A stretch of 64,000 bases of DNA from Chlorobiota bacterium (GCA_044228685.1 JBGAUL010000002.1:206218-270217), one strand, 5' to 3'. Shown: positions 6,703 to 63,223, counted from the first letter of the stretch. The notes: a model not told the origin generated them from the letters alone. Numbers and translations are program-made.

Positions 6703-6731
6703 GCAGGTTCAACAAGTGCTGTTGCATCAGG

Positions 6732-9145: not shown

Positions 9146-9298
9146 TTTTCTGCTTCAAGTGTTCTTTTTTGGCGTGGAATTCGCTTTGTGTTGAGGCTAA
9201 GAAGATACGATTTTTGAGAGACATACGAGGGTTGAGTCAAAGGCTCAATTCAGCGTAGCTCAGACCTGACCATATCACATCCTAACCCGGGAAGATCT

Positions 9299-18895: not shown

Positions 18896-18971
18896 GCTGA
18901 GGCTGAAAAGATTGTCTGGTGAATGAAATCCTGCTTCGCGTGAAAGAAGCATCCGCAGCTACATTGGCGCT

Positions 18972-22471: not shown

Positions 22472-22483
22472 TGCACGGAAAGC

Positions 22484-27960: not shown

Positions 27961-28644
27961 ATGAGTAACATCCTGATTATTGAAGACGATCCGGCCATTC
28001 TCATGGGTCTTGAGGATGCCTTGCGCGAGGAATTGTTCCAAGTGAGCGTAGAAACTGATGGTTCGCGCGGTTATGAGGCGGCCCTGAAGGACAAGAGCGA
28101 TTGCATCATTCTGGATCTCATGCTGCCGTCGATGAACGGACGTGATATCTGTCGTCGTTTACGCAGCGACGGGATTAACACCCCCATCATCATGCTCACC
28201 AGCAAAGGCGAAGAGAGTGATAAAGTGCTGGGTCTGGAACTCGGTGCCGACGACTACGTCACAAAACCTTTTAGCGTGCGTGAACTGATTGCACGCATCA
28301 AAGCGCAATTGCGTCGGACCTCGAGCGGCACTGAGAATGAGATTCATAGTCTGGACTTTGGTCAGGTGCACATCGATTTCGAGCGACAAGAAGTGCGCGT
28401 GGATTCATCCGATGTGAAACTCTCTGCCAAAGAACTCGAAGTCATGAAATACTTCGCACGTCATGAAGGCAAAGTCGTGACTCGAGATATGCTGCTCGAC
28501 GACGTGTGGGGTTATGAGAACTTCCCCACAACCCGCACCGTCGACAACTACATTCTTATGCTGCGCAAAAAGCTGGAGCAAAATCCATCAGAGCCTCGGC
28601 ATATTATTACGCTCCATACTCAAGGCTATAAGTTTGTTCGATAA
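27961..28644 (+). CDS. OmpR/PhoB-family DNA-binding response regulator (no adjacent kinase)
   Basis: REC (ILIIEDDPAI, DCIILDLMLPSMNG, TKPF) plus a winged-helix output domain (LSAKELEVMKYFARH...TRTVDNYILMLRKKLE...GYKF). Divergent from pstC. Confidence 0.85.
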   Translation: MSNILIIEDDPAILMGLEDALREELFQVSVETDGSRGYEAALKDKSDCIILDLMLPSMNGRDICRRLRSDGINTPIIMLTSKGEESDKVLGLELGADDYVTKPFSVRELIARIKAQLRRTSSGTENEIHSLDFGQVHIDFERQEVRVDSSDVKLSAKELEVMKYFARHEGKVVTRDMLLDDVWGYENFPTTRTVDNYILMLRKKLEQNPSEPRHIITLHTQGYKFVR

Positions 28645-39885: not shown

Positions 39886-40046
39886 ACACAAGGTTGCATT
39901 AGGTCGCTGCCCGGATTGGCTTTATGTATTTGGACCTCAGAATACACGACCTGATTGTCTGTACGAGCGCGCGTTGCATCTTTGAACTCCAAAACGAATT
40001 CAATAGTCTTTGAGCTACACTGTTTTTGATATTTCAGGATTGTCCT

Positions 40047-41752: not shown

Positions 41753-41790
41753 GAAGTGTACTGTCAACAACAGTGCACTTCTTTTATTTT
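41753..41790 (+). terminator. Strong rho-independent terminator
   Basis: GAAGTGTACTGT (41753-41764), loop CAACA, ACAGTGCACTTC (41770-41781): a 12-bp stem with one G.T pair, followed by TTTTATTTT. This argues that the next gene starts at 41852, not 41756. Confidence 0.7.
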
Positions 41791-41851
41791 AAGCGACTTC
41801 AAGGCTCTTATATTGAGCTGCAGACTCACCTGCGCTATTTGGGGAAAGGCT

Positions 41852-42775
41852 ATGAAAATTCAATCTCTGTTTATTGGGTTCTTTGTTCTCGTGATGCTCA
41901 GCATTAATGTCAGAGCTCACAGCGGAATGTCAGACGTAGAAGGTAAATGGTACCTTATCGTCCAATGGAAACCAATCTCGACGCAAAACATTGTAGCATG
42001 CTGGATGTTGTTTGAGGCCAATCACGAGGTTACAATGGGAATCGATTCAACCCAAAGCAAACTCGGCACCTGGTACGTGGATTCGCTCACACAACGCGTC
42101 GTTGCTTCGTTTGACAAAACGAGTTATCGCTTGATTGTGAGCGATACAAACATGTCAGGTACCGTTTCGACTGGTTCGAGCAGTGGCTACGTAGAAGCAA
42201 CTCGTTTTAAAGGACCATATTGGGATTCACTTTTTCACAGCTCGAAGAGAGATACCAACAAGTTTCATATCCGCATGGGTGTCGATTACTACGAGCAAGA
42301 CGTTAAAGTTGGTAGGATTCATCTTGGCATGGCTTTTAATCCGGGCGGAATTTCTTTCAATACTGAGATGTTGTCCTTGAGTGTGTTGAAGAAAGACGAT
42401 AAAACATACATTTCCTCAAATGCACTATGGCCTTTGTTTAGTGGTGTAGGTTATTTGATTGGAGCATTGAGTAGCAAAGGCGACGCTGAGGTAGGTGCTG
42501 CAACTCCGATGTTAGCACAGATGCTCGGTAACTTCGACGTCAATGTGCCGCTGGGTACTCCACTGTTGTGCGTTGATTTCGGACAGCAAACTGATTTCTA
42601 TTTCTTTTACGACGTCTCGCGCGTATGCACTGCCAGCTACGGCGGTGTCATGCTCAATCTTTTTCCGGCTCACATACCGTTACAAGCGGTAGCATCCTAT
42701 CACATTCCTTGGTATAGAGGATATATGACAACGCGGGAGAATTACTTCAGTGCTCGCATCAATCTCGTGTTCTAA
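41852..42775 (+). CDS. Hypothetical secreted protein (307 aa), possibly partly beta-barrel
   Basis: Signal peptide MKIQSLFIGFFVLVMLSINVRA|H. No recognisable family. The C-terminus (YFSARINLVF) ends in an aromatic residue, as in OMP terminal strands. Confidence 0.45.
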   Translation: MKIQSLFIGFFVLVMLSINVRAHSGMSDVEGKWYLIVQWKPISTQNIVACWMLFEANHEVTMGIDSTQSKLGTWYVDSLTQRVVASFDKTSYRLIVSDTNMSGTVSTGSSSGYVEATRFKGPYWDSLFHSSKRDTNKFHIRMGVDYYEQDVKVGRIHLGMAFNPGGISFNTEMLSLSVLKKDDKTYISSNALWPLFSGVGYLIGALSSKGDAEVGAATPMLAQMLGNFDVNVPLGTPLLCVDFGQQTDFYFFYDVSRVCTASYGGVMLNLFPAHIPLQAVASYHIPWYRGYMTTRENYFSARINLVF

Positions 42776-42787
42776 CACTTTTTATTG

Positions 42788-43642
42788 TCATTCAGTGATC
42801 TGAATTTCAAAAACTCGTGGCCACAATTTTCCTGTAACCAAAAAAGTGTTCTTTGCTGCATCGTAGGCAATGCCGTTCATCTCTGCCGAGCTGTGATGTT
42901 CGTACTGGACTTGTTCTGCAAGCGAGCTTAGGTCAAGGTCACCAACCACCGTGGCATCACTGACGCGAATCTTGACGATGCGGTTGGTTGTCCAAACATT
43001 GGCGTAGATATAACCATCGACATATTCCAACTCATTGAGGTATTGTAAGGGATAGCCGTTTTGCGAGACGCTTAGTGTCTTTGTGACTTTCAGAGTTTTA
43101 GGATCGAGATACTTCAGCAAATTCGTTCCGTCACTCATGATCAGTGAGCTCCCGTCAGTCGTCATTCCCCATCCCTCCGCACTCGGTAAATCAAACTTCC
43201 CAAGCTTCTTGAAGCTCTTCGCATCATATATAAATCCAACCTTTGATTGATAGGTTAGCTGATAGGCTTTGCCATTGAGAAAGCAGATTCCCTCACCGAA
43301 GTAGATTTTGCGATCGAGTTCTGCTTTGACCTCAATGTGACCATTCGCACGGTTCAGTATGCCAAACAAAGAGCGCGTGAATGGCAGCTGCGAAGTGGCA
43401 CCGGTACTTTCGTAAATCTTGCCGTCGTGTATCAACAATCCTTCCGTGAAGGAACTTGTATCATGAGGAAACCAGTCAACCGTCTTATACTTCAACACAC
43501 CCGTCGCAGCCGCAGCAGGTTTTTGCTCAACTTTCAGCAAGGGCTCCGGTGCCTCGCTCTTCTTTGAACATTGCTCCAAGACAAAGACTTGAAGAAGTAG
43601 CACCGCTACCAAGACTCCGCGCATGATATATCGTTTGCTCAC
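42788..43642 (-). CDS. Glutaminyl-peptide cyclotransferase, beta-propeller (plant/bacterial) type, probable lipoprotein
   Basis: The FTEGLLIHDGKIYESTGATS..., LNELEYVDGYIYANVW and NGIAYDAAKNTFLVTGKLWP blocks are typical of the Glu_cyclase_2 family. N-terminal signal with Cys (VLEQC). Confidence 0.8.
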   Translation of the reverse strand: MSKRYIMRGVLVAVLLLQVFVLEQCSKKSEAPEPLLKVEQKPAAAATGVLKYKTVDWFPHDTSSFTEGLLIHDGKIYESTGATSQLPFTRSLFGILNRANGHIEVKAELDRKIYFGEGICFLNGKAYQLTYQSKVGFIYDAKSFKKLGKFDLPSAEGWGMTTDGSSLIMSDGTNLLKYLDPKTLKVTKTLSVSQNGYPLQYLNELEYVDGYIYANVWTTNRIVKIRVSDATVVGDLDLSSLAEQVQYEHHSSAEMNGIAYDAAKNTFLVTGKLWPRVFEIQITE

Positions 43643-48633: not shown

Positions 48634-49239
48634 ATGCAACATCAACAATCACTGTCAATGCCTATTGAGCGAGTACCGCAGGGTCGTTTAGCACTCTGGG
48701 TTCTGATTGCAGGCGAGCTCATGATTTTCGGCGGACTTATTTGCTGCTATATCCTGTACCGACTTCGCTACCCGGAGTGGGCAGACCAAGCAGCTCATAC
48801 TTCAACCTTCTTTGGTGCTCTGAACACCGCAGTGCTGCTCACCAGTAGCTTCACTGTTGTGAAAGCTCACGAAGCTGCCAACAAACACGACTTGTCAAAA
48901 GTCACCTTGTGGCTGAGCATGTCCATACTCGGCGGCGTGTGGTTCCTCGTCAACAAGAGCATTGAATACTACCACGAAATCAGCGAAGGATTCACCTTTG
49001 CAAGTCCGGGACTACATGAGTCAGGAGACAGCATCGGATCGTTGTTTTGGTCGTTTTACTATCTCATGACCGGACTCCACGGAGCGCACGTCATTGCCGG
49101 CATGGTCGTCATGTTCTTGGCACTTCTTCAAGCACGCAAGGGCAAGAACCTGCATCGCGTCGAGCTTGCCGGTATGTACTGGCACATGGTCGACTTGATC
49201 TGGATCTTCCTCTTTCCCTTGCTGTATATCGCCAAGTAA
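48634..49239 (+). CDS. coxC: Cytochrome c oxidase subunit III
   Basis: 201 aa, 5 TM. FWSFYYLMTGLHGAHVIAGM and YWHMVDLIWIFLFPLLY are typical of subunit III. Confidence 0.85.
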   Translation: MQHQQSLSMPIERVPQGRLALWVLIAGELMIFGGLICCYILYRLRYPEWADQAAHTSTFFGALNTAVLLTSSFTVVKAHEAANKHDLSKVTLWLSMSILGGVWFLVNKSIEYYHEISEGFTFASPGLHESGDSIGSLFWSFYYLMTGLHGAHVIAGMVVMFLALLQARKGKNLHRVELAGMYWHMVDLIWIFLFPLLYIAK

Positions 49240-49626: not shown

Positions 49627-50214
49627 ATGCAACCAACAGCTGAACTAAGCTTTCCTCGCACTCGCTCCTCGATTTCCAGTGGTGTGTTGGGAATGATTTT
49701 CTTGCTCACCACTGAGTGTATGCTCTTTGCAGGTTTCATAAGCGCGTACATCGTTAATCGCGCTTCAATACCGGCATGGCAACCTGCTGACCAACCCCGA
49801 CTCCCGGTTGAAATGACGGCAGTCAATACAATCATCTTAATTCTCAGCGGAATACTCGTGTTGCGTGCACAGCGAAAGACAGATTCGTCGCTTGCGTCAA
49901 TGCGACGTTACCTTCAACTCGGATTGGTCTTCGGCAGCACGTTCTTAGCTGTGCAAGGCTATGAATGGATGCGACTGCTCGCATTTGGTCTTAACTCAAA
50001 CACAAGTTTATACGGTGCCTTTTTCTACCTGATCATTGGTGCTCACGCTCTTCACGTCGTTGCAGGCTTGATTGTTCTTGGATGGCTCTTGCGTGTGCTC
50101 AAATCTCAACGTAGCGAGACGGACAAGGTATCCGTCGTTGGTGTTGGTAGTCTCTACTGGTACTTCGTCGTAGCCGTATGGCCCATCTTGTATTTCCTCG
50201 TATATCTAAGCTGA
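49627..50214 (+). CDS. Second haem-copper oxidase subunit III-family protein
   Basis: 195 aa. FFYLIIGAHALHVVAGLIVL and LYWYFVVAVWPILYFLVY are subunit-III signatures, clearly diverged from the 48634 paralogue. Confidence 0.7.
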   Translation: MQPTAELSFPRTRSSISSGVLGMIFLLTTECMLFAGFISAYIVNRASIPAWQPADQPRLPVEMTAVNTIILILSGILVLRAQRKTDSSLASMRRYLQLGLVFGSTFLAVQGYEWMRLLAFGLNSNTSLYGAFFYLIIGAHALHVVAGLIVLGWLLRVLKSQRSETDKVSVVGVGSLYWYFVVAVWPILYFLVYLS

Positions 50215-50529: not shown

Positions 50530-50555
50530 AACGTTCATCACATGAGCGTTTTTTT
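50530..50555 (+). terminator. Rho-independent terminator of the oxidase operon
   Basis: AACGTTCAT (50530-50538), loop CAC, ATGAGCGTT (50542-50550), then T5. The 9-bp stem has one G.T pair. Confidence 0.6.
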
Positions 50556-50895
50556 CAGGTCCTGAGCTTTCTTTAGTTGTTATTTTGAGAGAGCAGCATC
50601 TATCTCTGTTTGCACTGATTGCAGCGTCTGAACTGAGTCACTCACTCTGTCTCAGAATACACCGTCCGCGGCGTCCTGCTTCCATAGCACACAGCATTCA
50701 TCTTTTATTAGCGTCCTCAGATGTCCTTCAAAAAGGGCCTGAGTTTGTCGCAAATGGGTACTTGCCGAGTATTCCTTGATTTGTGCAGCATGAGCTCGTG
50801 CTTTGGCACTATATCTGCGGCATTCTCAACTCTGGTTGAGATTTGGAATAGGCGTATTAGGTGATGAGTTGCTGGCACTGTGATACTTAGGCGAA

Positions 50896-52590
50896 ATGGC
50901 AATGCGACGTACGAGCGTAGTAAAAAGAACACTACACTGTTTTCTTTCTTCAGTTCGGCTGCTCAGGCTTTGCCTATGCATGACCTTCCTTTTGTCCGCA
51001 TCGACCCTTCTTGCCGATGATTCATGGATTCGCGCCTCCGGATCTCTCGGTCTTTCCTCAGACTACTACGACCAAAACGGCTTAGATCAATCTCGTCTTC
51101 CAAGCTTCGTTCATCGTGCGAGTTTTCGTACGACTATTACCCTGTTCAATCAAATTGACTTGCCTTTTGAAGCCTACGTGACTTCCAACAGCATGGGATA
51201 TCGTCAGCCCTTCAATCAATTTGGCGTGAATCCTCGCATTGGCTCGTGGCTCACTCTGCATGCAGGATATTTCTCAACCAGGTTCAGCGACTTGACCTTT
51301 GGCGATGCACGTATCCTTGGTGGTGGCTTTGATCTGACGCCGGGCAATGTCCGTATCTCAGCTTTCTACGGTTTGACTCGAGAAGCACGAAATCCGGATC
51401 CTGTCTATTTCTATACCGGCGAATACGAACGTCGTTGTCTTGGCGTGAAGCTCGGCTATGGTTCCAACGACGGCATCAACTTTGGAATCTCGGTCATGCA
51501 TGCTCAGGATGAAATCGGATCAATTCGCGCCGATAGCACAACACAAAAACCACAAGAGAACCTCGCAACCTCAATGCAATTCAGTGTTGCTGCTTTCGAT
51601 AACTTTCTTCGCATCAACACAGAGGGTGCGATAAGCGTGTTCACAAGCGATCGCACGGCTCCGCTAACTGATAGCACCAATCGCATCCTGGTCGCCGAAC
51701 AAGCAGTCGGTTCAAACATCAGTACCAGTATCGATGGAGCATTCAAAGCCGGTTTGCAAATCACACCTTCGCAGCGCTGGAATGTTCGATTTGATGCGCA
51801 ATGGATCGGACCAGGCTTTGTAACACTCGGTTATGTTCAGATGCCGAATGATGTTCTTGATTTAAGCGTTGCGCCTTCTGCACGACTCTTCGACAATGCG
51901 CTGTTCATTCGACTGAGTTATGGCAAACGCACCAACAACTTGCGCAACACACTCTTCGCTCCAACGACCCGCACAATTGGATCACTTAATCTCAGCGCGA
52001 ATTTCAATGAGCACTTAGGCATGGACCTCATGTATTCGAACTACGGCATGAAGTCAACTCACGTCAATGACACACTCAAAGTCTCGAATATCTCGCAGAT
52101 GTACATGATCTCTCCTCGCGCCTCTTTTGATTGGCTCGGTGGAGTAAATACCGCTAGCATGACGATTATGTATCAAAACAGTGATGATGCAAATCAGTAC
52201 AGTGCAGCGTCGGTAAACAACACCTCTTCATCGGTGTCAGTTGTGCACTCGATTTCGCTGCCCTCGAAACTCTCGTTGACGACCACGGCATTCTACAACG
52301 CCTTCTCAACAGCGGCGATTCAAACGAAGATTACGACAGTTAATGAGACCGCGAGTTATTCTCTGCACGACAACATGATCATGCTGAGTGCTACTCTGGG
52401 TTTCAACATTGTTCACTCTACATCAAATTCAACACAGTTGATGGCGCGAATATCCTCAACACTCAATCTGGAGAAGTGGGGATCATTCACATTGTCGCTC
52501 ATGAATAACAGCTACGATTACAACACGGTTAGCGGCATACCGAGCTACCGTGAATTACAAGCAAGTCTGCAGTACTCGATCTCCTTCTGA
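50896..52590 (+). CDS. Predicted outer-membrane beta-barrel protein, family unknown (first gene of the orphan envelope operon)
   Basis: 564 aa with an N-terminal signal-like segment ending ...STLLA|DD. The sequence is dominated by short alternating hydrophobic/polar stretches with frequent Gly/Tyr/Asn/Ser. The C-terminus (ELQASLQYSISF) ends in Phe, like an OMP beta-signal. No POTRA, TonB-box or OmpA motifs seen. Confidence 0.5.
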   Translation: MAMRRTSVVKRTLHCFLSSVRLLRLCLCMTFLLSASTLLADDSWIRASGSLGLSSDYYDQNGLDQSRLPSFVHRASFRTTITLFNQIDLPFEAYVTSNSMGYRQPFNQFGVNPRIGSWLTLHAGYFSTRFSDLTFGDARILGGGFDLTPGNVRISAFYGLTREARNPDPVYFYTGEYERRCLGVKLGYGSNDGINFGISVMHAQDEIGSIRADSTTQKPQENLATSMQFSVAAFDNFLRINTEGAISVFTSDRTAPLTDSTNRILVAEQAVGSNISTSIDGAFKAGLQITPSQRWNVRFDAQWIGPGFVTLGYVQMPNDVLDLSVAPSARLFDNALFIRLSYGKRTNNLRNTLFAPTTRTIGSLNLSANFNEHLGMDLMYSNYGMKSTHVNDTLKVSNISQMYMISPRASFDWLGGVNTASMTIMYQNSDDANQYSAASVNNTSSSVSVVHSISLPSKLSLTTTAFYNAFSTAAIQTKITTVNETASYSLHDNMIMLSATLGFNIVHSTSNSTQLMARISSTLNLEKWGSFTLSLMNNSYDYNTVSGIPSYRELQASLQYSISF

Positions 52591-52619
52591 TTTGATACAA
52601 CGTCCTTTGGGCTTAGACC

Positions 52620-55600
52620 ATGAAAAAACTCAATAGCCTTTTCCTCCTGCTTCTGCTCAGCATTTTCAGTAACACTGCAATGCATGCTCAAGATGCTGTG
52701 GTCAACGTTAGTGTGCGTCGACCGGTGCCGTTGTCTCTTTCGACATGGCGCACAGATCCATCTGTTGTTACTGTCAGCGTCACCGCTACGCGTGATCTGA
52801 ACAATTTTGTGATTGGCTTTGAGATTCTCAATACCACCACCGGACAGTCCGCCCACACCGATAATGCGCACGCGTGTATGCCGGTGTTTAGCATCCGTCG
52901 CGGAGAAACCCGCGTGATCAATGGTCCGCAGCTTATCTGCAACAACGCCATCAACGCCGATCCCGATCTGCAACGCAGCGTTGCCTCAGCAGGAGCGATT
53001 CCCGAAGGTGATTACAGTTATTGCGTGCATTTGATTGAGAGCGATCGTCGTACGGAAATCAGCACAACCGGACGTCTCTGCGATTACTTCACCATCGTCT
53101 GGCCTAATCCTCCGGTTCTCATCTATCCCGTCAACATCTTCGACCTCAACGTCAACACGGCACAAACCTTTACCTGGCAACCGGCTCTTCCTCTTGCACC
53201 GGGCACGAGTGCGCAGTATAGAATTCGGGTAGTGGGCGTTGTCGACGGACAAGAAGCTCGCACCGCTCTTGATGCCGCAACTGCAAGCGAAACGGTCTTG
53301 GATGAATTCGTCCCTACTACATCAAAAGTCTTTACGCCAAACTTTGCTCCATTCGTTGATCTCATCGGACGCAGCGTCCCACGCTTCACTCGATTCGCGT
53401 GGCAGATTCAAGTTGTAGATCAATATCGCATGCCCATCGCCACTCGTGGCGGCACACAAGGCAAGAGTGAGATTGGTTTGTTTGATTTTACGCGCAGCAG
53501 CTCCGGCGGTGGTGGTGGATCAACGGCGGGCGCATCGTGTGTGAATCCAATGACCTTGACGGCGTACTTTCCGGCTGCGACGGATACTATTCCGTGGTTG
53601 CCGCCACATCTCATTGTGCAATGGGGACCGTGGTGCAGCGAAGTCCGCAACATGCAATACACCTTGCATGTTCGTGAACGCGGTGGATCAGCGTTAACAG
53701 ATAACAGTCGTGATTTGAATTGGCGAAGCGGCATACTATCGGCACAAGGACTGAGCGCCGGACAAGAAGATCGCGCTCGACTGATCATAACCAATTGGCG
53801 CACAGAATCAGGATCAGTTGCACCGCTCAACGCAAGTCTTCGTCGAGGTCCTGCTTATGATTGGAACGTCGACGCACAATTCGTTCGCAGCGAGAACGGA
53901 GCTGAGCAGACGCGCACGGCAAATACGTCGACGCAGAGTTTTTCCATCGGACTCAAGATGCCCGTCAATCCTGAGCCGGCGAACAACGCCACTGTCGATG
54001 ATGGATCAAACCTCAGTTTGCTCTACGACATTCCGGCTCCTGCGCAGAGCATGTACACGCCGAATGATTTGATGAATGTTATGGGACGCGGCAGTGCATC
54101 CATGGACTTCGGAATTGCCTACGAAGTTGTTCGCGTAAAGGTCTCGAGAAATAGAGATATGTCATCGGCTATTGCCTCACAGACGACCGTATCTCCGCGC
54201 TACAACATTGTCACCGGAGATAATCCGGCTGACCTCTTTGGTCGCAAGCGCATGGATCACCTCAATCTCAGTGCAGGCACCTACTACTGGCAAGTTGAGT
54301 ATTGTAATCCCGAAGACACTAATCGTATTTATCGACAGGGTCCGGTATGGCAGTTCAATATCGGCGGCAGTCCAATCGACCCGCGCGAGTGTTTTCGCAT
54401 TCAACCAGTTGCGCCGGAAAATCGAGCAACAATCAGTGGTGGACCACATGTGCGCTTCTCGATTTCGACCAATCCGCCGACGAATTTGAATGCAGTACGA
54501 GGAGGACGCTTACAAATCTGGGAGATGGCATCAGCAAGCGAAGATCCGGCGACGGTGAAGGGTCGTCCGGCACTTGTCGACGAACGCTTCTCCGGTCATG
54601 AAGCCGCTGCAATCGTCGCCTCAAGCGGCATTGGCAGCAGCAGCTCCCGCAGTTACTACAATCTTCCCTTTGTCAATGGCTCTGCTCCATATCGCTTCGA
54701 AGCGCATAACAACACGACTTATCTGTGGGTCTTCACCATGCAAGTGGATGGTGCAACGATTCGCAATGATGGTCAGCGATGCACATTATCCGAGATCAGT
54801 TCTTCAGACGGCATCTTCACTTATCGCGAAGGATGCTCTGATGCTTGTATTGCAGCGGCGCCGTCGAGCACGACGCCCTCATCTCGCACCTTTAACATTG
54901 GTGACGATATCCGCGTCGGACAATTCACTGCACATCTGACTCGCGTTAGCGGTACCGGCTCTTCACTCAGTGGTGCTGCGACGGTGAACATTCCGGTTTT
55001 CCGTGGAGGCGTCCAAGTTGAATTCAACAACATTCAGGTCAATGATGAGGCGCAGATGTTTGAGGGTGAGATGCGCGCTGTGCAAGCACCTTCATCGCCC
55101 ATCAATGCCAGTGTTGCCAACGATCTTGGTACTGCCTTAGGTCTAACGAGCTCGCAAGTAACATCGCTCCATGGCATAGCTTCTGATGCAACACGATTGG
55201 TCAGCAATCTTGCAATGGGCACGCCGGTTAATCTGCCGATTGGATTTGATAGGGTAATCGAAGGACAGCGCGTGGTGATTGGGATCATTGGAATGGTCTT
55301 CAAGCCACGCGAAGCACGACTCAATGCAGCGCTGTCATTTCCAATGCCTGCATTTGGTCCTGGCGAACGCATTGGCTTTGGCGCGCGCAACATCTGCTTC
55401 TACCCCGGAGGCTTTGGTCGCGATTTCGACATTGGTTTGGTCGATGATCTCGGCTACACCGCAAGCGACACCTCGTGGTCATTCCACTTCCTAGCTCCAC
55501 GCGAAGCAAGCGGATCTGTCCGTGCTGATTCCGGAACCTTCGCACGATTCGGTTGCAATGGTTTTGAATTCATTCGCGTGAAAGCTGAAGTCAATTTCCC

Positions 55601-58600
55601 ACGCACCTGGATTAAGAAAGTTGAAACTGACGGCAGCGTCAATGAAACTGATCACGCTAAGGCGACATTTACAACCTTGATCAGAGCGAGCGGTGAGTTC
55701 ATTGCGGAAGCAACCATGGACAAGTTCACGCCGGCAGGTGCGCCGGACTTTGTCATGGAATGTGATACCATCGTTCTAGACTTTTCGGATCACGACAATC
55801 CAAGTACCATTCACTTCCCTGAGCGTTATCGAGGCAGCACAGACAACACCTGGCGTGGCTTCTACATGCATCGTCTCTTCATGCAGCTTCCATCGCAACT
55901 GCGTACCTTCTCTGAAGATCGTCCGATGAAGCTTGGCATTCAAGACATGATCATCGATCGCACCGGATTGTCGCTCAGTGTTCGTCTTGAAAACGTCATT
56001 CAATACCCACGAGGCAACTTCGGCGAATGGGGTGCAAGTATTGACACGATTGGCGTCGACTTGGTCTCATCGTCGCTTGAACGAGGCTTCCTTTCAGGAC
56101 GCTTCCAAATTCCTATCTCCGATTCTGCACTCGATTACTCAGCTGTTATCGCACGAGCTGCGAGCGGCTCGGGAGTTGAATTCCGCTTCAACATTCGTCC
56201 ACGCGACACCATCAATGCCCGACTCTGGGTGGCGCAGTTAACGCTGGATCCAACCTCATACATTCGTTTGACGGCCAACTCTGCTCGCTTCCAAGCTGAG
56301 GCGAACTTCAGTGGAGCACTATCGATTGTTGGAGATGTTGGATCCGTTCACGGTGTACGTTTCGGCGGAATCAGTTTTCAAAACTTCCACATACAATCCG
56401 TCGAACCCTATGTGCGGGTTGAACATTGGTCCTTTGCTTCACCGCAGCACGGCTTCGCGATGTCGCCTTCTCCTGAACCGAGCCCTGACGAAAGCTCCGG
56501 CAGCGCAGGCAGTGGCGGCGGAGTTTCGGGATTTCCTGTGAGTATAGGAAACATCAACATTGTGAGTCGCAGTGCGAGTGGAGGTTTGCCGGGACTTGGC
56601 ATTCAATTCACACTCAGCGTCAATCTTCAACCAGGTAACAACGCCATTAGCGGTGGAGCAACCTTCTCCATTTGGTCCAAGGTGGTCGTCGGCTCTGGTC
56701 CGATGCACATCGACTTCGACGGATTCCAACTCGACTCGGTTGGCATTCACGCTGACTTCGGTGCAGTCATTGTCAACGGTCAACTCCGCATCTACAACCA
56801 AGATCCCACCTTCGGCGATGGCTTCCGCGGCAGTGTACAAGCCAACTTCGTGCACATGGTGGAGATCTCGGCAACGATTCAATTTGGAAGCGTTCACGAC
56901 TACCGTTATTGGTATGTAGATGCTCGCGCAGTTCTTGCGACCGGTATTCCTGTGTTCCCGGGTGTTGGATTCTACGGTTTTGGTGGCGGTGCTTGGTACA
57001 ACATGCGACGTGTGGTGCGATCTGAGGCTGATGCTCGGCGCGGCATTGCGCAAACGGGTTCAAGTGACTCTACGGATCGAGCTTCGTCGGCACCTCCGGG
57101 TGCAACCAATTCGGGCGAACGATACGAACCATTCCATTCCGATGCCGGTGAGTCTTTTGGATTCTACGCAATGGTCACGATGGGTACCATGCCCAAGTCA
57201 GATGCATTCAATTGCGACGTCCGACTGGAGATCAGCTTCATCGGTGGTGCTATCAACGAGATTCGTTTGCGTGGCGATGGATATATGCTTGCGGATGTGA
57301 TGCATCGACCGGACGCGAAGGTGACAATTGTGGCGGATATCTATTACAATTTTCCGGATAGGATTTTCCATGGCGACTTTGACGTGACGATCAACGCGGC
57401 TGTTGTCACAGGACACGGTCATGCCGTCATGCACTTTGCTCCAACAACTTGGTACATCAAAGTCGGCGATCCTGAGCGCGAGAAGATTCACGTCACGATT
57501 GCTGACTTGGTTGAGATTCAAGCTTATCTCATGTGCGGACTCGATCTACCAAACACCATGGTCGTACCGCCTGAAGTAGTCGCCATTTGCGGCATGCCTC
57601 CTGCTGCCCGCGGAATGGAGCAATTGAGTCGAGGCGACGGTTTCGCTTTCGGTGCCAGCGCATCAATGAACGTGGAGGCGCGCTTCCTCATCTTCTACGC
57701 ATCGGTGCAGCTACTCTTCGGCTTCGACGTCTCACTCATGAACTACGGTTCTGCAGCCCGATGCGAAGGAACCGGAGCGCCAATGGGCGTCAATGGATGG
57801 TACGCACGAGGTCAGCTCTACGCCCGACTCGGTTTGGCCGTAGGCATCGATGTTGATCTCGGCTTTGTAAGTGGGCGATACGAAATTCTCAGCGCTGAAA
57901 TCGCCGCCATCTTGCAAGCCGGATTACCTAATCCAACCTGGATGTCGGGAGCGTTTGGTGGACGTTACTCAATTCTTGGAGGACTCATCAGCGGCTCCTT
58001 CAACTTCCAATTCAAAGTTGGGGAAGAATGTCGATTACCGGTCGAGAGTGGTTTGTCCAACATCGATCTCATCAATGAGATCTCACCGGCCAATGGTTCA
58101 ACCGACGTCTCAATCGGCGTTGAGCCGGCAATTGCCAGCAACTTCTTGCTTGAGAGACCATTTGAAATTTTGGAGCTTGATCCAAATGACGGCAACACGT
58201 ACATCCGCACCTATCGCGTGCGTATTCGCGAGTTCCGTCTCAACCAAGAAGTAGCAGGTGCGGCAGTCGCATGCCTACCAGCTCGTGTTGACGCCAATGA
58301 TCGTCATTATGCAATTCTCTCTCCGAGCAATGTCCTACGTCCAAACCGTGCACGGTACACCGCTACAGCTACTGTGTATGGACAACGCTTTGACGATGCG
58401 GCTGCGCTATCGAGCAACGATATCAGTGCTGCTGATTCCAATCGATACCGCTCGCGTATTTCAGCATACATCACCAATGATCGCTATTGGATTAATGCGA
58501 TGCGTCAAGGTGGCTCAAGACGAGGTGAGCCTATTGCACAAACGGTGAGCTCGACATTTACGACAGAGACCTTGCCTGATTCGCTGCGACCAAGCGACGT

Positions 58601-59975
58601 GTACCTTGCCTATCCGCGCAACAGACAACGTCATTACTTGCAAGGTGAGTGTCCGGCTGGATCAATCAACCTCATGGTCGATCGCAGTGATCTCTTCTAC
58701 GCCTCACGTGGTTTGAGCCGTTACGAGTACAAGGTCAGATACGTAAAACTTCCCGGCAACGTTCGCACCGAAGCTTCCGACTGGTCCTACGCTCCGGGTC
58801 CGCCGCCACTCGCTATTGGCGAACGTCCCGTATCTCCGTCGCGTATGAGTGGTGGTTACATTTCCTACACCATTCCGAGCTTGGAGAACAACACCATTTA
58901 TGCTGTGCAGATTATTCGTCGTAAGCTGGAGTTGAGTTCGTCTCTGCGAACCGTCGGACTCGGTGCAGGCAACCGCGGAACTCCAACCATCAACGTTCCC
59001 GCTTCCACATTAGGTGGAAGTGCGATTGCCAATATCGGTCTTACTCGAGCAGTTTTATCAAGCACCATTTATGCTCGTCTTGGCAACACTGTTTCCATCA
59101 ACGCGACGCGTATTTCCGGATTCAATCTCGCACGACAAGTAGCGGATAATGAAAACTTACTCTATCTCTATTTCTTCAAAACCAGTCGTCATAATACACT
59201 CGAACAAAAGGTCAACAGCATCAACAACACCGCAACGAATGCTGTACCGCCATTTCTCAACATGCAGCTCCTCAACGCCTATTTCAGCGGTCCTGAACTT
59301 GTAGATCCTGCAGATGTTGAGGATCAAACGATTGAGGTATCCGGACGACAATACTTGATTCATCCGCTCATCAGCGTCAGTGCACGCACCCGCGGCGACG
59401 AGTGGCACAGCAAGTTCACAGAGCCACAGATTTACAACGAGTTTACATTCATTCGATCACTTCTTGGTTCTAGCTACCGATATCAAACCATGTTTGATCG
59501 CATAGCGCGCACGAGCACGATGGCGACGACTCAGGCAACGGCGAATCCACTGCAGGATTATGAGATTAGTGCAGTGGGTGATCCCAGCATGCAACGTCAA
59601 TTGCAAATGCTCTCACGCATTGCATCGCAACTGCGCTACAACCCTGTTCCGGGCGGTGGAGTAAGCGGAATGGGCTTAGCCACGAGTGCCTACTCTGAAC
59701 CTTCCGGATGGAAAATCACCTACGAACAACCTGTGTTTATCCCATTCGATTTTGGTGAGCTGCGCACACGAGCACTTGCACTTATTAGTATGTACTGCGG
59801 TGGTGGTGACGTTGGCTTCACGCCGCAGGAGTGCGCTCACTTACGTCGCATTGCAAACCAAAGCTATGTTCTTCCACTCCACGGACAATACTCGCTGAGT
59901 TTCAAATACGACTACTACGCTTGTCTTGATCCGGATTCACCAATGCGTTCATTCACAAAACGATTTACCTACTAA
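52620..59975 (+). CDS. Giant 2451-aa secreted protein of unknown function (five N-terminal W...YxWxV modules plus a ~1700-aa non-repetitive beta-rich body; no T9SS CTD)
   Basis: Uninterrupted 7.36-kb ORF 29 nt after the OMP gene. Signal peptide ...NTAMHA|QD. Low-complexity linkers SSSGGGGGSTAG (about 53494-53535) and SPSPEPSPDESSGSAGSGGGVSG (about 56463-56530). I recognise no catalytic or known adhesin motif. Confidence 0.7.
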   Translation: MKKLNSLFLLLLLSIFSNTAMHAQDAVVNVSVRRPVPLSLSTWRTDPSVVTVSVTATRDLNNFVIGFEILNTTTGQSAHTDNAHACMPVFSIRRGETRVINGPQLICNNAINADPDLQRSVASAGAIPEGDYSYCVHLIESDRRTEISTTGRLCDYFTIVWPNPPVLIYPVNIFDLNVNTAQTFTWQPALPLAPGTSAQYRIRVVGVVDGQEARTALDAATASETVLDEFVPTTSKVFTPNFAPFVDLIGRSVPRFTRFAWQIQVVDQYRMPIATRGGTQGKSEIGLFDFTRSSSGGGGGSTAGASCVNPMTLTAYFPAATDTIPWLPPHLIVQWGPWCSEVRNMQYTLHVRERGGSALTDNSRDLNWRSGILSAQGLSAGQEDRARLIITNWRTESGSVAPLNASLRRGPAYDWNVDAQFVRSENGAEQTRTANTSTQSFSIGLKMPVNPEPANNATVDDGSNLSLLYDIPAPAQSMYTPNDLMNVMGRGSASMDFGIAYEVVRVKVSRNRDMSSAIASQTTVSPRYNIVTGDNPADLFGRKRMDHLNLSAGTYYWQVEYCNPEDTNRIYRQGPVWQFNIGGSPIDPRECFRIQPVAPENRATISGGPHVRFSISTNPPTNLNAVRGGRLQIWEMASASEDPATVKGRPALVDERFSGHEAAAIVASSGIGSSSSRSYYNLPFVNGSAPYRFEAHNNTTYLWVFTMQVDGATIRNDGQRCTLSEISSSDGIFTYREGCSDACIAAAPSSTTPSSRTFNIGDDIRVGQFTAHLTRVSGTGSSLSGAATVNIPVFRGGVQVEFNNIQVNDEAQMFEGEMRAVQAPSSPINASVANDLGTALGLTSSQVTSLHGIASDATRLVSNLAMGTPVNLPIGFDRVIEGQRVVIGIIGMVFKPREARLNAALSFPMPAFGPGERIGFGARNICFYPGGFGRDFDIGLVDDLGYTASDTSWSFHFLAPREASGSVRADSGTFARFGCNGFEFIRVKAEVNFPRTWIKKVETDGSVNETDHAKATFTTLIRASGEFIAEATMDKFTPAGAPDFVMECDTIVLDFSDHDNPSTIHFPERYRGSTDNTWRGFYMHRLFMQLPSQLRTFSEDRPMKLGIQDMIIDRTGLSLSVRLENVIQYPRGNFGEWGASIDTIGVDLVSSSLERGFLSGRFQIPISDSALDYSAVIARAASGSGVEFRFNIRPRDTINARLWVAQLTLDPTSYIRLTANSARFQAEANFSGALSIVGDVGSVHGVRFGGISFQNFHIQSVEPYVRVEHWSFASPQHGFAMSPSPEPSPDESSGSAGSGGGVSGFPVSIGNINIVSRSASGGLPGLGIQFTLSVNLQPGNNAISGGATFSIWSKVVVGSGPMHIDFDGFQLDSVGIHADFGAVIVNGQLRIYNQDPTFGDGFRGSVQANFVHMVEISATIQFGSVHDYRYWYVDARAVLATGIPVFPGVGFYGFGGGAWYNMRRVVRSEADARRGIAQTGSSDSTDRASSAPPGATNSGERYEPFHSDAGESFGFYAMVTMGTMPKSDAFNCDVRLEISFIGGAINEIRLRGDGYMLADVMHRPDAKVTIVADIYYNFPDRIFHGDFDVTINAAVVTGHGHAVMHFAPTTWYIKVGDPEREKIHVTIADLVEIQAYLMCGLDLPNTMVVPPEVVAICGMPPAARGMEQLSRGDGFAFGASASMNVEARFLIFYASVQLLFGFDVSLMNYGSAARCEGTGAPMGVNGWYARGQLYARLGLAVGIDVDLGFVSGRYEILSAEIAAILQAGLPNPTWMSGAFGGRYSILGGLISGSFNFQFKVGEECRLPVESGLSNIDLINEISPANGSTDVSIGVEPAIASNFLLERPFEILELDPNDGNTYIRTYRVRIREFRLNQEVAGAAVACLPARVDANDRHYAILSPSNVLRPNRARYTATATVYGQRFDDAAALSSNDISAADSNRYRSRISAYITNDRYWINAMRQGGSRRGEPIAQTVSSTFTTETLPDSLRPSDVYLAYPRNRQRHYLQGECPAGSINLMVDRSDLFYASRGLSRYEYKVRYVKLPGNVRTEASDWSYAPGPPPLAIGERPVSPSRMSGGYISYTIPSLENNTIYAVQIIRRKLELSSSLRTVGLGAGNRGTPTINVPASTLGGSAIANIGLTRAVLSSTIYARLGNTVSINATRISGFNLARQVADNENLLYLYFFKTSRHNTLEQKVNSINNTATNAVPPFLNMQLLNAYFSGPELVDPADVEDQTIEVSGRQYLIHPLISVSARTRGDEWHSKFTEPQIYNEFTFIRSLLGSSYRYQTMFDRIARTSTMATTQATANPLQDYEISAVGDPSMQRQLQMLSRIASQLRYNPVPGGGVSGMGLATSAYSEPSGWKITYEQPVFIPFDFGELRTRALALISMYCGGGDVGFTPQECAHLRRIANQSYVLPLHGQYSLSFKYDYYACLDPDSPMRSFTKRFTY

Positions 59976-59985
59976 GATCACTCTC

Positions 59986-62127
59986 ATGAAAGTTGTATGC
60001 GTTCTTATCGCACTCTGTCTGATTATCCATTCGATGGATGCTCAGAACAAAAAGAGTAGTTCGAAGACCAATAGCGAGCGAAGCGTCGACACTACACAGG
60101 TCGATGATGATCTAGCGCGCACGGCATCCATTCGGGCACTGAGTCGCAATGGTGTTGATTCCATCGTGATTCGCTGGGCTCCAACGAAGGCCGGCGCATG
60201 GTTTACGTACAACACAATTGGTTACGTCGTGGAACGAGGCGACGTCAGCAATGACGAGGCTAAGAACGTCACGCGCTTTCAAGTAATCAACAAACAAACA
60301 ATCAAAGCCTGGACCTTGGACGAGTTCAAGTCGCGCATCAATTCAACACATAAGTATGCGGCAATTGCAGCGCAATGTCTTTATGGCAAAGTCTCAATTC
60401 CTCAGCCCGGTTCAGATGGCAGCGTCAACAGCCTGGCACTAGCTGCGCAAGAGCTCGACAACAAGTTTGCCTTTGCGATGTATGCTGCCGACAACGACAT
60501 CCTCGCTGCCGAAGCACTTGGTTTGCGTTTTGTTGACCGTAACATTCAGCGCGGTCATGAATATGTCTACCGCATACGTTCTGTGCGACAGAGCGAGCGC
60601 TATCTCATCGACACCGCCTATGTGAGTGCCAAAGCAGAAGCTGCCGAAGCACTTATGCCGCCGATGAATCTTAGCGCGACCGAGGAGCACGGTCAGGTCA
60701 CTCTTCGCTGGAAAAACATACCCGTTCTACCCTACTCCGGATTCAACGTCTATCGTCGTGATGCACAAGGCAAGGAGATCTTACTCAACTCCACGCCAAT
60801 CAGTGCAGTTCAAAATCCGAAGTTCAATCAAACTATGGAGCCGTACTATGTTGATACCACTTGTGGGTTCTATGCAAAGCACAGCTACTTCGTTCGAGGC
60901 ATATCAGCATTTGCAGAGTTGAGTCAGGCAAGTAGTGTTGAAGCAATGGGCCGTGACCGCAGCGCACCACCAACGCCGGTGATGAAGAAGCCCTTGATCT
61001 TCAGTAACACAATGGTCCGTCTTGAGTGGGAGATGCGTGCAGAGGCTAAAGACCTTGCAGGTTTTGTTGTTTTACGCAGCGACTCAGTGGCATCGCGGTT
61101 CAAAGCACTGCATGACAAACTAGTTCCGGCCAAGACATTCACTTTCCTGGACACGGCTGCCACAGCGGCTGAGCCCTACTATGCTGTACAAGCAGTTGAC
61201 ACAGCCGGAAATGTTTCCGATTACTTCACCGCCTACGTCGACATCCACGACACGCTCCCGCCGGCAATGCCGCGAGGTCTTCATGGCTCAATAGATACAA
61301 ACGGCGTCGTGCGTCTTGTATGGAATCTCGGAACTGAAAAGGATCTCTTAGGTTATCGTGTTTTGTGGGCCAACGATACAACGCATGAATTCACGCAGCG
61401 CACAAATTTTGTGTTGCAGGACACCATTATGGTGGACACTATTCAGATCAATACTCTGACGCCATACATTTACTACAAAGTTGTGGCAGTTGATACGCGT
61501 TACTTCCATTCGCTGGCTACGCCGATTCTTGCGCTTAAGCGACCAGACGTTGTGCCTCCGCAGGCTCCTCAATTCATCGACGTTCGAGTTAGCGATTCAA
61601 CCGTCATACTTCGTTGGGCACGCTCGCGCAGTCATGATCTCAAGAATCACATCCTCTTCAAACGCGCTCAAGGATCTAAAGAGTGGAAGGAACTCGTGCG
61701 CTTGGGTGCAATGGATCAAATGTATGAGGACAAAACCGTAAACAAACGTAGTACCTATGAGTATCAACTAGTGGCAATAGATAGTACGGGACTTCGTTCG
61801 GAGCCATCAGCGGCAGTGCAGGGGCGTCCTTTCGACACTGGCAAGCGACCAAGTCCCAGCAACATTCGTCTATCCTACGATCCCAAAACCAAGAGCGTCA
61901 CCGTTCAATGGGAATTCAACGCGATGATGTCGGAGAAATACTGGTTCGTGCTGTACAGAGGCTTTGAGGATTTTGATCTGAAGCAAATGCAGGCAATCGA
62001 TGCGCGACAACTATCAGTGACGGATAAAGATCTGGTTGGAAATGGTCGCTATCGCTACGCCGTGAAAGTCATGAGTCCTTATGGAGAATCTCCTTTGAGC
62101 GAGATACAGGAAATCATCGTTCGTTAA
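59986..62127 (+). CDS. Secreted protein with six fibronectin-type-III-like modules (713 aa from MKVVC; the ORF is open from 59926)
   Basis: Starts 10 nt after the giant gene's stop. Signal ...IHSMDA|QN. Recurring FN3 grammar (VTLRWKN...GFNVYRR; VRLEWEM...GFVVLRS...YYAVQAVDTAGN; VRLVWNL...GYRVLWA...YYKVVAVD; ILRWARS...YEYQLVAIDSTG; VTVQWEF...YRYAVKVMSPYGES). No T9SS CTD. Confidence 0.65.
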   Translation: MKVVCVLIALCLIIHSMDAQNKKSSSKTNSERSVDTTQVDDDLARTASIRALSRNGVDSIVIRWAPTKAGAWFTYNTIGYVVERGDVSNDEAKNVTRFQVINKQTIKAWTLDEFKSRINSTHKYAAIAAQCLYGKVSIPQPGSDGSVNSLALAAQELDNKFAFAMYAADNDILAAEALGLRFVDRNIQRGHEYVYRIRSVRQSERYLIDTAYVSAKAEAAEALMPPMNLSATEEHGQVTLRWKNIPVLPYSGFNVYRRDAQGKEILLNSTPISAVQNPKFNQTMEPYYVDTTCGFYAKHSYFVRGISAFAELSQASSVEAMGRDRSAPPTPVMKKPLIFSNTMVRLEWEMRAEAKDLAGFVVLRSDSVASRFKALHDKLVPAKTFTFLDTAATAAEPYYAVQAVDTAGNVSDYFTAYVDIHDTLPPAMPRGLHGSIDTNGVVRLVWNLGTEKDLLGYRVLWANDTTHEFTQRTNFVLQDTIMVDTIQINTLTPYIYYKVVAVDTRYFHSLATPILALKRPDVVPPQAPQFIDVRVSDSTVILRWARSRSHDLKNHILFKRAQGSKEWKELVRLGAMDQMYEDKTVNKRSTYEYQLVAIDSTGLRSEPSAAVQGRPFDTGKRPSPSNIRLSYDPKTKSVTVQWEFNAMMSEKYWFVLYRGFEDFDLKQMQAIDARQLSVTDKDLVGNGRYRYAVKVMSPYGESPLSEIQEIIVR

Positions 62128-62224: not shown

Positions 62225-63223
62225 CTACTTCGTTTTAAGATCCATTTGTTCCATCATTTCCAGCACGTTCTTTCCGTTGCGACAAACAGCATAGGAAAAA
62301 CCGCTTTGCAGAGCGGCACTGCCAATCTCACCTGCACGATTGAGTGCTAGAAACGCAACTTGAAATTCACGCCAGTCAGGTTGTTTGCGCACGATACGTT
62401 CGATGGCGATATCGCAGGCTTCTTGTGGAGATTTTCCCATGCGCATCAATTCGACGATGATCGCGGAGCCAGCTACGCGAATGACAGACTCGCCTTTACC
62501 GGTTGCACACGCTCCCCCTACTTCATTGTCAACAAACAAACCGGCACCGATGATTGGTGAATCACCAACACGACCGTGGATCTTCCAAGCCAACCCACTT
62601 GTGGTGCACGCTCCCGACAAATTTCCCTTGGCATCTATAGCCAGCATGCCGATAGTATCGTGATTGGATTTGTCGATGTGATTCTTCTTTGAGGGATGAT
62701 ATGCACTCGACTTCAGCCATTTCTTCCACTCTTCGCGTGCGAGGTCGGTGAGGAGATTTTGTTTCTTGAATCCGTTATCCAGAGCGAACTGCAGAGCTCC
62801 GTCACCAACCAACATCACGTGCGGAGTTTTCTCCATGACTTTTCGTGCAACGGAAATTGGGTGCATGATGTGCTCAAGACAAGCCACAGAGCCGGCATTG
62901 CCGTGTTCGTCCATAATACATGCATCGAGTGTGACGCGTCCATCACGATCCGGAAATCCACCATAACCCACGCTTGTCACTTCCGGATCAGCCTCACTCA
63001 CGCGAACTCCTGCTTCAACTGCATCAAGTGCTGAACCTCCTGCGTTCAGGATTTTCCATGCGGCATCGTTTGCTGCCATACCATGAGGCCAAGTGGACAG
63101 TACTATCGGTCCGCTTGTGACAGGTGCGAGACGACTCAGCGCCGGCGTGGCACGCACACCTGTTGTTGACAGTAGCGCAGCACTCGACAAAAGAGATGCA
63201 TTGATAAACTCACGACGTTTCAC
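62225..63223 (-). CDS. Exported Ntn-hydrolase: glycosylasparaginase / isoaspartyl peptidase-L-asparaginase family
   Basis: Twin-arginine-like signal (MKRREFINASLLSSAALL...VRA), an autoproteolytic HDTIG site, and GAGLFVDNEVGGACATGKGE, which is typical of the Asparaginase_2 family. Confidence 0.85.
   Translation of the reverse strand: MKRREFINASLLSSAALLSTTGVRATPALSRLAPVTSGPIVLSTWPHGMAANDAAWKILNAGGSALDAVEAGVRVSEADPEVTSVGYGGFPDRDGRVTLDACIMDEHGNAGSVACLEHIMHPISVARKVMEKTPHVMLVGDGALQFALDNGFKKQNLLTDLAREEWKKWLKSSAYHPSKKNHIDKSNHDTIGMLAIDAKGNLSGACTTSGLAWKIHGRVGDSPIIGAGLFVDNEVGGACATGKGESVIRVAGSAIIVELMRMGKSPQEACDIAIERIVRKQPDWREFQVAFLALNRAGEIGSAALQSGFSYAVCRNGKNVLEMMEQMDLKTK

Follow-up and report, generated by a model that had tools for sequence, protein, structure and literature searches.

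A conserved three-gene envelope module of the Bacteroidota group, a candidate platform for giant cell-surface adhesin arrays

We analysed a stretch of 64,000 nucleotides from a Chlorobiota bacterium (GCA_044228685.1 JBGAUL010000002.1:206218-270217), hereafter the window, in which three adjacent genes, A, B and C, encode a predicted outer-membrane beta-barrel, a very large all-beta protein and a rod of FN3 domains. These genes belong to a module that recurs across the Bacteroidota group, with its gene order permuted, and that matches no family in the databases searched apart from the FN3 domains of C. Our preferred reading, advanced tentatively, is that A, B and C constitute an outer-membrane platform that anchors, and probably exports, large arrays of surface adhesins. 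The three genes are arranged as follows:

50896-52590, plus strand: gene A, 564 aa, predicted outer-membrane beta-barrel of ~26 strands without a plug domain
52620-59975, plus strand: gene B, 2451 aa, all-beta giant
59986-62127, plus strand: gene C, 713 aa, Sec-exported rod of six FN3 domains

The three open reading frames (ORFs) were found on one strand, separated by 29 nt (A/B) and 10 nt (B/C), as proposed in an earlier note made from the sequence of the window. For C, the mechanical ORF (59926-62127) opens at a TTG at 59926, and the in-frame ATG at 59986 gives a 713-aa product with a signal peptide.

Searches of A, B and C against Pfam, NCBIfam, PADLOC, PHROGs and PDB sequences matched only the FN3 domains of C; PADLOC returned nothing for the trio and PHROGs only FN3-level matches of C. 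The comparison with hidden Markov models (HMMs) and PDB entries, by which the earlier note had proposed to look for an already characterised system, thus yielded no family other than FN3 and no name in the databases searched. The literature was also searched for the trio or related systems, and no description was found, while the relatives retrieved were all named 'hypothetical protein' in their sources. An exhaustive search of 1.84e9 representative proteins with a profile of the B core (aa 750-1835) identified 3,222 clusters (at 50% identity) with E <= 1e-3, including 1,892 with E <= 1e-30, and family members ranged from ~1,400 to 5,500 aa. A first, word-indexed search had returned 13 relatives of B only, a discrepancy that reflects the limits of word indexing; taken alone, those 13 would have wrongly upheld the 'orphan' status that the earlier note gave to the operon. 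Indeed, relatives of B were present in at least 304 GTDB species genomes, as detected with two short core peptide patterns, and more than 286 homologues of A were found, every one labelled 'hypothetical', so that this status had to be abandoned.

Carriers of B, named here by the labels of the deposited metagenome-assembled genomes (MAGs), included Kapabacteria, MAGs labelled 'Chlorobiota', Ignavibacteria, Melioribacter and Kryptonia (Candidatus Kryptonium), as well as Bacteroidales including Prolixibacteraceae, Flavobacteriales, Chitinophagales, Saprospiraceae, Cytophagaceae and Flammeovirgaceae; the labels 'Alphaproteobacteria' (locus L049) and 'Armatimonadota' (L055) may be binning errors. 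The cultured carriers were Perlabentimonas gracilis, Flavobacterium sp. JAS and Chitinophaga sp. GbtcB8.

Gene linkage was determined by running HMMs of A, the B core and C on six-frame ORFs of all fetched loci, among them 80 of the 304 genome loci. When only the 38 loci that extend 4 kb or more to either side of B are considered, A, B and C occurred together on one strand in 35; the orders recorded were ABC (34), BAC (14), BCA (10) and ACB (1). Conserved synteny, the lack of which would have counted against a system according to the earlier note, was therefore observed across the Bacteroidota group, with permuted order. On a soil contig of 70% GC (L005), where the order was B-C-A, homology to the window proteins was detected at E-values of 8e-25 for A, 4e-23 and 2e-17 for B, and 5e-44 for C; across the phylum, the B core is ~30% identical. 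The genes flanking the trio showed no conservation between loci, and neither A-B nor B-C fusion proteins were found. A co-location that stays constant while the order is shuffled argues strongly that A, B and C are a functional unit, and probably a physical complex.

Some MAGs contained two B loci (L017/L085 in JAJUGM01, L054/L064 in JAEUSP01 and L037/L051 in JAEUSO01), which points to paralogous systems; in the first of these, one B was long (at least 1,761 aa, running off the contig end) and the other short (1,501 aa). An A homologue with neither B nor C within 10 kb was observed in an Ignavibacteria MAG (L007, 9065-11632), and ahead of it lie the gene of a 242-aa Por_Secre_tail protein and 3.6 kb (5448-9065) in which no gene is called. 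On the soil contig L005, the trio was flanked by MacB/FtsX permease genes, and the gene of a 1,985-aa Tricorn/PD40 repeat protein (4047-10004) overlapped the start of the B homologue by 4 nt.

When the neighbouring genes of the loci were clustered, two associations recurred, one with SprB-repeat genes, the more informative, and one with a two-component system. The region ahead of the B core varies from 0 to more than 3,000 aa among relatives. In short B proteins (~1,450-1,570 aa), the core lies near the N-terminus, and at the short-B loci with enough downstream DNA, genes of SprB-repeat proteins were located directly 3' of C (L076, L086, L088, L089, L090 and L091, from Perlabentimonas, Flavobacterium, Chitinophaga, Saprospiraceae and a Joint Genome Institute metagenome). 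The Pfam SprB matches of these neighbours had E-values of 1e-40 to 1e-55, and one of the proteins also carried a Por_Secre_tail. Moreover, the N-terminal extension that precedes the core in B relatives P0261, P0259, P0012, P0150 and P0270 was homologous to those separate giant SprB-repeat neighbours; in P0261, it comprised eight SprB repeats together with fn3, PKD and Ig_7 domains, and B was followed at this locus by an enlarged C homologue. An SprB-type module is thus either fused to the N-terminus of the B core or encoded beside B-C, a Rosetta-stone link to the handling of giant surface arrays, and this gene context appears to tie the B core to the display or handling of giant cell-surface adhesins. 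The comparison made in the earlier note with an outer-membrane-anchored giant adhesin served by a dedicated pore gained real support from these fusions and neighbours, with A as the presumed pore or anchor.

In at least seven loci from three lineages, a Y_Y_Y/HisKA_3 sensor kinase and a LuxR-type regulator were encoded immediately upstream of the trio on the same strand (L008 5655-9331, L023, L052, L068, L074, L075 and L078; domains Reg_prop/Y_Y_Y with HisKA_3, and LuxR(GerE)-type), which suggests ligand-controlled expression of the trio. The occurrence of two copies in some MAGs, combined with this upstream two-component system, would suit a conditionally expressed surface structure. At the window locus, no Y_Y_Y/LuxR pair was found upstream of the trio. 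Sigma-54 and two-component genes are present elsewhere in the window (17120-18952, minus strand; 20432-23578; 27961-28644), encoding a PAS histidine kinase, a hybrid receiver-kinase and an OmpR-type regulator, none of which matches the pair. A 984-aa ORF of the window (31142-34096), considered as a Y_Y_Y sensor kinase, was rejected, as it corresponds to an ASH/HYDIN Ig-like protein.

To describe the proteins, AlphaFold2 models covering A (76 homologues) and the B core (aa 750-1835; 23 sequences) were used. The model of A (predicted local distance difference test, pLDDT, 87.6; predicted template-modelling score, pTM, 0.74) was characterized by 25 long strands and one short strand, short periplasmic turns and modest external loops, and had neither a plug nor an N-terminal soluble domain. 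According to this model, A is an outer-membrane beta-barrel of ~26 strands, in agreement with the beta-barrel assignment of the earlier note. Foldseek returned large outer-membrane barrels only, with MtrB first (6r2q_B; E 1.6e-8, TMq 0.51), along with the FimD/PapC ushers (FimD ~0.44), SlpA and LptD; SprA, at rank 31, was a generic barrel match. The C-terminus of A reads ...YSISF, its final Phe being conserved in at least 90% of homologues, and the best-conserved stretch (residues 104-144; QPFNQFG.SP...W.TLHAGYFS.R.SDLTFGD.R.LGGG) corresponds to strands and loops beside the barrel seam. In sequence searches, A itself had no match in Pfam, NCBIfam or PDB.

Protein B could be divided, from its N-terminus to its C-terminus, into the following parts:

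52620-52688, plus strand: signal peptide (aa 1-23), with cleavage between ...AMHA and Q, read from the translation
52689-53519, plus strand: N-terminal conserved module (aa 24-300), present in 'long' B and missing from 'short' B
53520-54866, plus strand: variable region (aa 301-749), starting with a Gly/Ser linker and lost or replaced in many relatives
54867-58124, plus strand: conserved core (aa 750-1835), with ~38 long amphipathic antiparallel beta-strands
58125-59975, plus strand: C-terminal module (aa 1836-2451), conserved in the family, with neither an outer-membrane protein (OMP) beta-signal nor a type IX secretion system (T9SS) C-terminal domain

The N-terminal module probably consists of two beta-sandwich domains. 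Even at locus L005, a distant one, it is retained, with 28% identity along 277 aa (E 2e-17), and its comparison with PDB gave nothing significant, the best match being an FN3 domain of neogenin (E 0.36). The modules flanking the core showed no relationship, by hhalign, with the FN3 domains of C or with each other.

The core was modelled with a pLDDT of 77.9 and a pTM of 0.44, and most of its strands were linked to their neighbours on either side by turns of 2-4 residues. Across 202 non-redundant homologues, the amphipathicity of the core strands equalled that of the A barrel, with charged residues making up 8% of the hydrophobic face and 24% of the polar face. The best Foldseek match of the core was full-length LptD (E 2.5e-7, TM 0.15-0.20); the ApoB100 beta-belt and SlpA came next. 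These matches are significant yet geometrically poor, and on the model the resemblance to LptD and ApoB100 is a generic one. TamB, RHS proteins and SprA were absent from the top 50, and a comparison with viral structures gave a single weak match to an unnamed protein. Among the same 202 sequences, the motifs RYWYVDA (aa 1429-1435) and YGFGGGAWYxM (aa 1452-1462) were invariant, as was G-x-C-N-F-x-F-x-x-G-E-x-C at the end of the core. Gly, Pro, Asp and aromatic residues account for nearly all invariant positions of B, which suggests that these positions serve structure and gives no pointer to catalysis. A covariation analysis of these sequences for barrel closure (mutual information with average product correction) was dominated by the phylogenetic and gap signal of the N-terminal part.

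A C-terminal aromatic residue was not consistent in the B family, which indicates that B has no canonical OMP beta-signal. The PDB sequence searches gave no significant match for the B core, the C-terminal module or full-length B, whether with profiles or with the full-length sequence. A Pfam/NCBIfam scan of B at E <= 1 returned 0 families, and a Pfam scan of seven other members of the B family, the longest of 4,237 aa, returned nothing. In three giant relatives of Saprospiraceae type, P0148 (5511 aa), P0194 (4237 aa) and P0206 (3698 aa), the first half of the core (profile positions ~1-484) was repeated 6-7 times, so that the core appears as a repeatable module joined to a single-copy second half.

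The six FN3 domains that the earlier note had read in C were recovered with an iterated repeat profile, at residues 58-201, 224-313, 324-413, 422-509, 521-607 and 620-701, the first unit carrying an insert of ~55 aa. Pfam fn3 matched at 26.1 bits (cut-off 25), and FN3 domains of titin and fibronectin were matched in PDB. The length of C was 690-780 aa in nearly all loci, and its conservation equalled or exceeded that of A and B at every evolutionary distance. Fixed length and high conservation are the behaviour of a ruler or strut, unlike that of an adhesin stalk. Beside the SprB-fused B (the P0261 locus, L092 12544-17352), the C homologue was enlarged to 1,602 aa and had gained Big_7 and MopE-like copper-binding domains.

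Sec-type signals, which the earlier note had attributed to all three proteins, could be traced in each. Reading of the translations placed the signal peptide of B at MKKLNSLFLLLLLSIFSNTAMHA, followed by Gln, with equivalent A-x-A sites before Gln in homologues, and that of C at MKVVCVLIALCLIIHSMDA, also followed by Gln and of the same A-x-A type; A has a hydrophobic N-terminus, of which residues 13-36 were helical in the model. In Bacteroidetes, substrates of signal peptidase I as a rule begin with Gln once they are mature (PMC5837995, PMC10653852), and the mature B and C, as well as most B homologues, start with Gln at the predicted signal-peptidase site. A glutaminyl cyclase gene is present in the window (42788-43642, minus strand) and fits this rule for B and C. 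No internal transmembrane helices and no CxxCH haem motif were found in A, B or C. The Por_Secre_tail, the C-terminal domain (CTD) of T9SS cargo, was absent from all three in the Pfam scan, as the earlier note had stated; of the five other carriers that it had counted in the window, the same scan supported four (9299-14380; 28706-29920, minus strand; 36572-37801; 37957-39885). One of these is a 1,693-aa LamG/ASH-Ig protein and two are BNR/sortilin-like.

Under the platform reading, Sec would export all three proteins, and signal peptidase I would cut B and C before Gln. A would form a wide barrel of ~26 strands in the outer membrane, without a plug, and would act as a pore or anchor. The amphipathic core of B (~1,080 residues) would be the conserved base, docked at or in the outer membrane beside or through A, and C would be a rigid strut or ruler of six FN3 domains bound to B, ~20-25 nm long if extended. 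The payload would be the part N-terminal to the B core: in the window, the 750-residue N-terminus of B; in other lineages, an SprB/PKD/FN3 array fused there, or a separate SprB-repeat protein encoded 3' of C. We infer complex formation, the protein locations, the role of A as pore or anchor and surface display from these combined observations. We counted in favour of the platform that A is plug-less and that its closest folds are MtrB and FimD/PapC, which sheath or conduct folded proteins, together with LptD. We consider doubtful the more specific proposal of a T9SS-independent display or secretion route of Bacteroidota, in which the A barrel, the B beta-belt and the C ruler would move and hold adhesin arrays, and regard with similar reserve the suggestion that, in such a route, the arrays are part of B by fusion or dock onto it once T9SS has exported them. 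As the organism of the window is flagellated, the module is not tied to gliding motility.

Several observations weigh against the platform. A was not found within 8 kb of B at three short-type loci of Chitinophaga and Flavobacterium or at the fused-type locus L092, which means that A may be dispensable for B-C. At the window locus, SprB-repeat genes are not among the neighbours, the N-terminus of the window B contains no SprB, PKD or other recognisable adhesin domain, and the first 300 aa of this B are conserved and not hypervariable. In addition, the pTM of the core model was just 0.44, B has no conserved C-terminal beta-signal, the sole significant fold matches of the core include the lipid-handling LptD and ApoB100, and the localisation of A, B and C is predicted.

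These fold matches bear on another explanation, a TamB/AsmA- or Lpt-like conduit in which the groove of B would carry lipid or hydrophobic cargo, A would be the gate and C a spacer. We judge it unlikely, although the core matched full-length LptD as well as the lipid-binding beta-belt of ApoB100, its strands are strongly amphipathic with few charges on the hydrophobic face, its turns are tight at both strand ends, unlike those of a classical OMP, its high conservation is machine-like, and A resembles LptD among other barrels. Indeed, no AsmA, DUF490, OstA or LptD family match was obtained even at E <= 1, B carries a signal peptide that can be cleaved and is not anchored in the inner membrane, A does not belong to Omp85 and lacks POTRA domains, and the TM values of the core were very low. 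Bacteroidota, moreover, already own TamB/TamL (PMC12045153). A conduit would also leave the SprB-repeat fusions and neighbours unexplained, and multiple copies under two-component regulation would be unusual for housekeeping lipid transport. Alternatively, B could itself be a giant barrel or translocon (SprA-, LptD- or autotransporter-like) with an internal beta-signal, exporting its own N-terminal passenger, with A as an accessory barrel and C as a periplasmic adaptor. All significant fold matches of the core save ApoB100 are outer-membrane barrels, its ~38 long strands have barrel-like amphipathicity, the conserved G-x-C/F-N-F-x-F of its last strand resembles a beta-signal, and a passenger ahead of a conserved beta core is an autotransporter-like layout. 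We nevertheless find this quite unlikely: most hairpins of the core have turns of 2-4 residues at either end, which is not typical of OMPs, the very low TM values and the position of SprA outside the top 50 lend no support to a closed barrel, and B has no conserved C-terminal aromatic residue and no SprA_N, Autotransporter or IAT_beta match.

It is very unlikely, in our view, that B and C are a periplasmic scaffold, a lattice or tether held under the outer membrane via A that would set spacing or stiffness with no export or display. A highly conserved FN3 rod of fixed length, the absence of enzymatic motifs, and Sec export of all three proteins with no surface-sorting signal on any of them would fit such a scaffold, but peptidoglycan-binding and OmpA domains were not found, a wide plug-less barrel of 26 strands is improbable as a simple anchor, and the SprB/PKD adhesin fusions would remain unexplained; the module is, moreover, not universal and is sometimes duplicated. 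Finally, we give practically no credence to the idea that the trio is an orphan operon restricted to one lineage, or that three unrelated secreted proteins lie side by side by chance. The 13 relatives of the word-indexed search and the non-conserved flanking genes speak for it, and it is refuted by the thousands of B core clusters, the hundreds of species genomes and A homologues, and the constant linkage of the trio described above.

With regard to known systems, the platform would work most like the SprB-SprF/PorP pair of adhesin and carrier or like type V secretion, by analogy and without their testable defining features. According to PMC12635249, and to PMC9143113 as cited there, the SprB adhesin and a PorP/SprF-type outer-membrane carrier represent T9SS type-B cargo anchoring. 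The likeness lies in the Bacteroidota host, in a giant repetitive surface protein with an adjacent dedicated outer-membrane barrel, and in the SprB-repeat proteins that either have their genes next to B-C or are joined to the B core in one protein. In contrast, PorP_SprF (searched in A at E <= 1), SprB-repeat and T9SS C-terminal domains are absent from A, B and C of the window, A has ~26 strands, and the SprB system has no counterpart of the B core or of a six-FN3 partner. The identification of B and C as the gliding proteins SprC and SprD was considered and rejected: sprC fits a 2.1-kb fragment, and the best BLAST match of SprD in Saprospira grandis is the protein also matched by SprF (PMC9870892). 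Type V secretion shares a Sec-exported giant with a variable 'passenger' and a conserved beta-rich module, an outer-membrane barrel, and no ATPase in the unit; it differs in that the trio had no Autotransporter, IAT_beta, ShlB or POTRA match and no aromatic terminal beta-signal on B, in that A has ~26 strands versus 12-16 and the B core ~1,080 aa, and in that an FN3 third partner is absent from type V.

The TamA/TamL-TamB and AsmA systems likewise combine an outer-membrane barrel with a very large all-beta protein of amphipathic strands, and the earlier note had drawn this analogy. Such bridge-like proteins have a continuous beta-taco with a hydrophobic groove; the B core was modelled, at the low pTM given above, as all-beta with amphipathic strands, and TamB was not in its Foldseek top 50. 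In every testable family feature the trio differed. B had no AsmA, AsmA_2 or DUF490 match at E <= 1, nor had 7 other family members, and it has, on reading of the sequence, an A-x-A signal peptide before Gln that is followed by a conserved domain, with no other hydrophobic 20-mer. The Omp85 barrels TamA, BamA and TpsB have 16 strands and POTRA domains, whereas A has ~26 strands, no N-terminal soluble domain and no Pfam match. The LptD-LptE system resembles the trio in the ~26-strand barrel and in the best Foldseek match of the B core; it differs in that neither A nor B matched OstA_N or LptD, no lipoprotein is encoded in the unit, and the TM was 0.15-0.20. The SprA_N domain and the 36-strand barrel of SprA/Sov were not found in the trio, as judged by Pfam and by the Foldseek top 50 of the B core. 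MtrCAB and chaperone-usher systems provided the best folds for A, wide barrels that sheathe or pass folded, Ig-like or elongated proteins; however, A matched neither the MtrB_PioB nor the Usher family, CxxCH was absent from A, B and C, A has no plug, and no gene of a periplasmic PapD-like chaperone lies in the unit. Repeated FN3 units, as in FN3 domain proteins, are found in C alone.

Overall, none of the T9SS C-terminal domain, POTRA, TonB-plug, OmpA, SprA, TamB/AsmA, RHS and usher families was detectable in the trio, in keeping with the earlier note for those of them that it had named. Judging by this absence of detectable relationship, the trio would lie outside every named kind of system; a comparison of full-length models with AFDB could still reveal that it is distantly related in structure to a known group, for instance to bridge-like lipid-transfer proteins.

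The limits of the unit in the window were as the earlier note had described them, with a hairpin and T-run and a non-coding leader upstream and a convergent gene downstream:

50530-50555, plus strand: terminator-like hairpin and T-run (stem 50530-50550, then TTTTTT), closing the aa3 cytochrome oxidase operon
50556-50895, plus strand: leader of ~340 bp, presumed promoter region of the trio, non-coding, with no ORF of at least 80 aa

The hairpin is the upstream boundary and lies outside the A-B-C module. No sigma-70 consensus promoter was found upstream of A in 50556-50895, the region in which we nonetheless infer the promoter of the trio to lie. Downstream, an asparaginase gene (62225-63223, minus strand) is convergent with the unit. 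Gene spacing and conserved linkage make co-transcription of A, B and C a reasonable expectation. In public gene calls, A starts at ATG 50980 (536 aa, compared with 50896 and 564 aa here), and B starts 20 codons late (52680, compared with 52620), giving 2431 aa and losing the signal peptide. The longer, signal-bearing start of B was backed by homologues, and automated annotation could thus miss the export of B.

Upstream of the trio, the neighbouring ORFs encode an aa3-type oxidase: the segment 45592-50464 comprises a cytochrome c, COX2, COX1 and two COX3-like ORFs (48634-49239 and 49627-50214), as well as small ORFs that lie among these genes and behind them. At the start of the window (20-4493), genes of a CheA-like protein (20-1273), CheB (1270-2388) and the flagellar hook protein FlgE (3168-4493) were found, and the organism is thus flagellated despite its Bacteroidota/Kapabacteria placement and its T9SS cargo. 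An unusual secreted redox protein of 558 aa (40026-41702) combines an N-terminal CarboxypepD_reg-like part with a C-terminal thioredoxin/AhpC-TSA part; the next ORF (41756-42775, 339 aa) had no Pfam match.

Members of the Bacteroidota group predominate in gut, soil and aquatic communities, and the envelope machines of the group, such as T9SS, the gliding apparatus, Sus and an unusual BAM, have repeatedly proved to be phylum-specific inventions. The trio represents a further conserved envelope module of this group, with thousands of members, one protein whose size runs from 1,500 to over 5,000 residues, no representative in Pfam, NCBIfam or PDB and no name in the sources queried, and its presence in three cultured carriers makes the question of its function directly testable. 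If the module serves display or export, it would provide one more way of placing giant adhesins on Bacteroidota cells and might help to explain how giant proteins that have no CTD arrive at the surface. Should it turn out to be a lipid conduit or a giant translocon, its relevance would lie in the biogenesis of the outer membrane.

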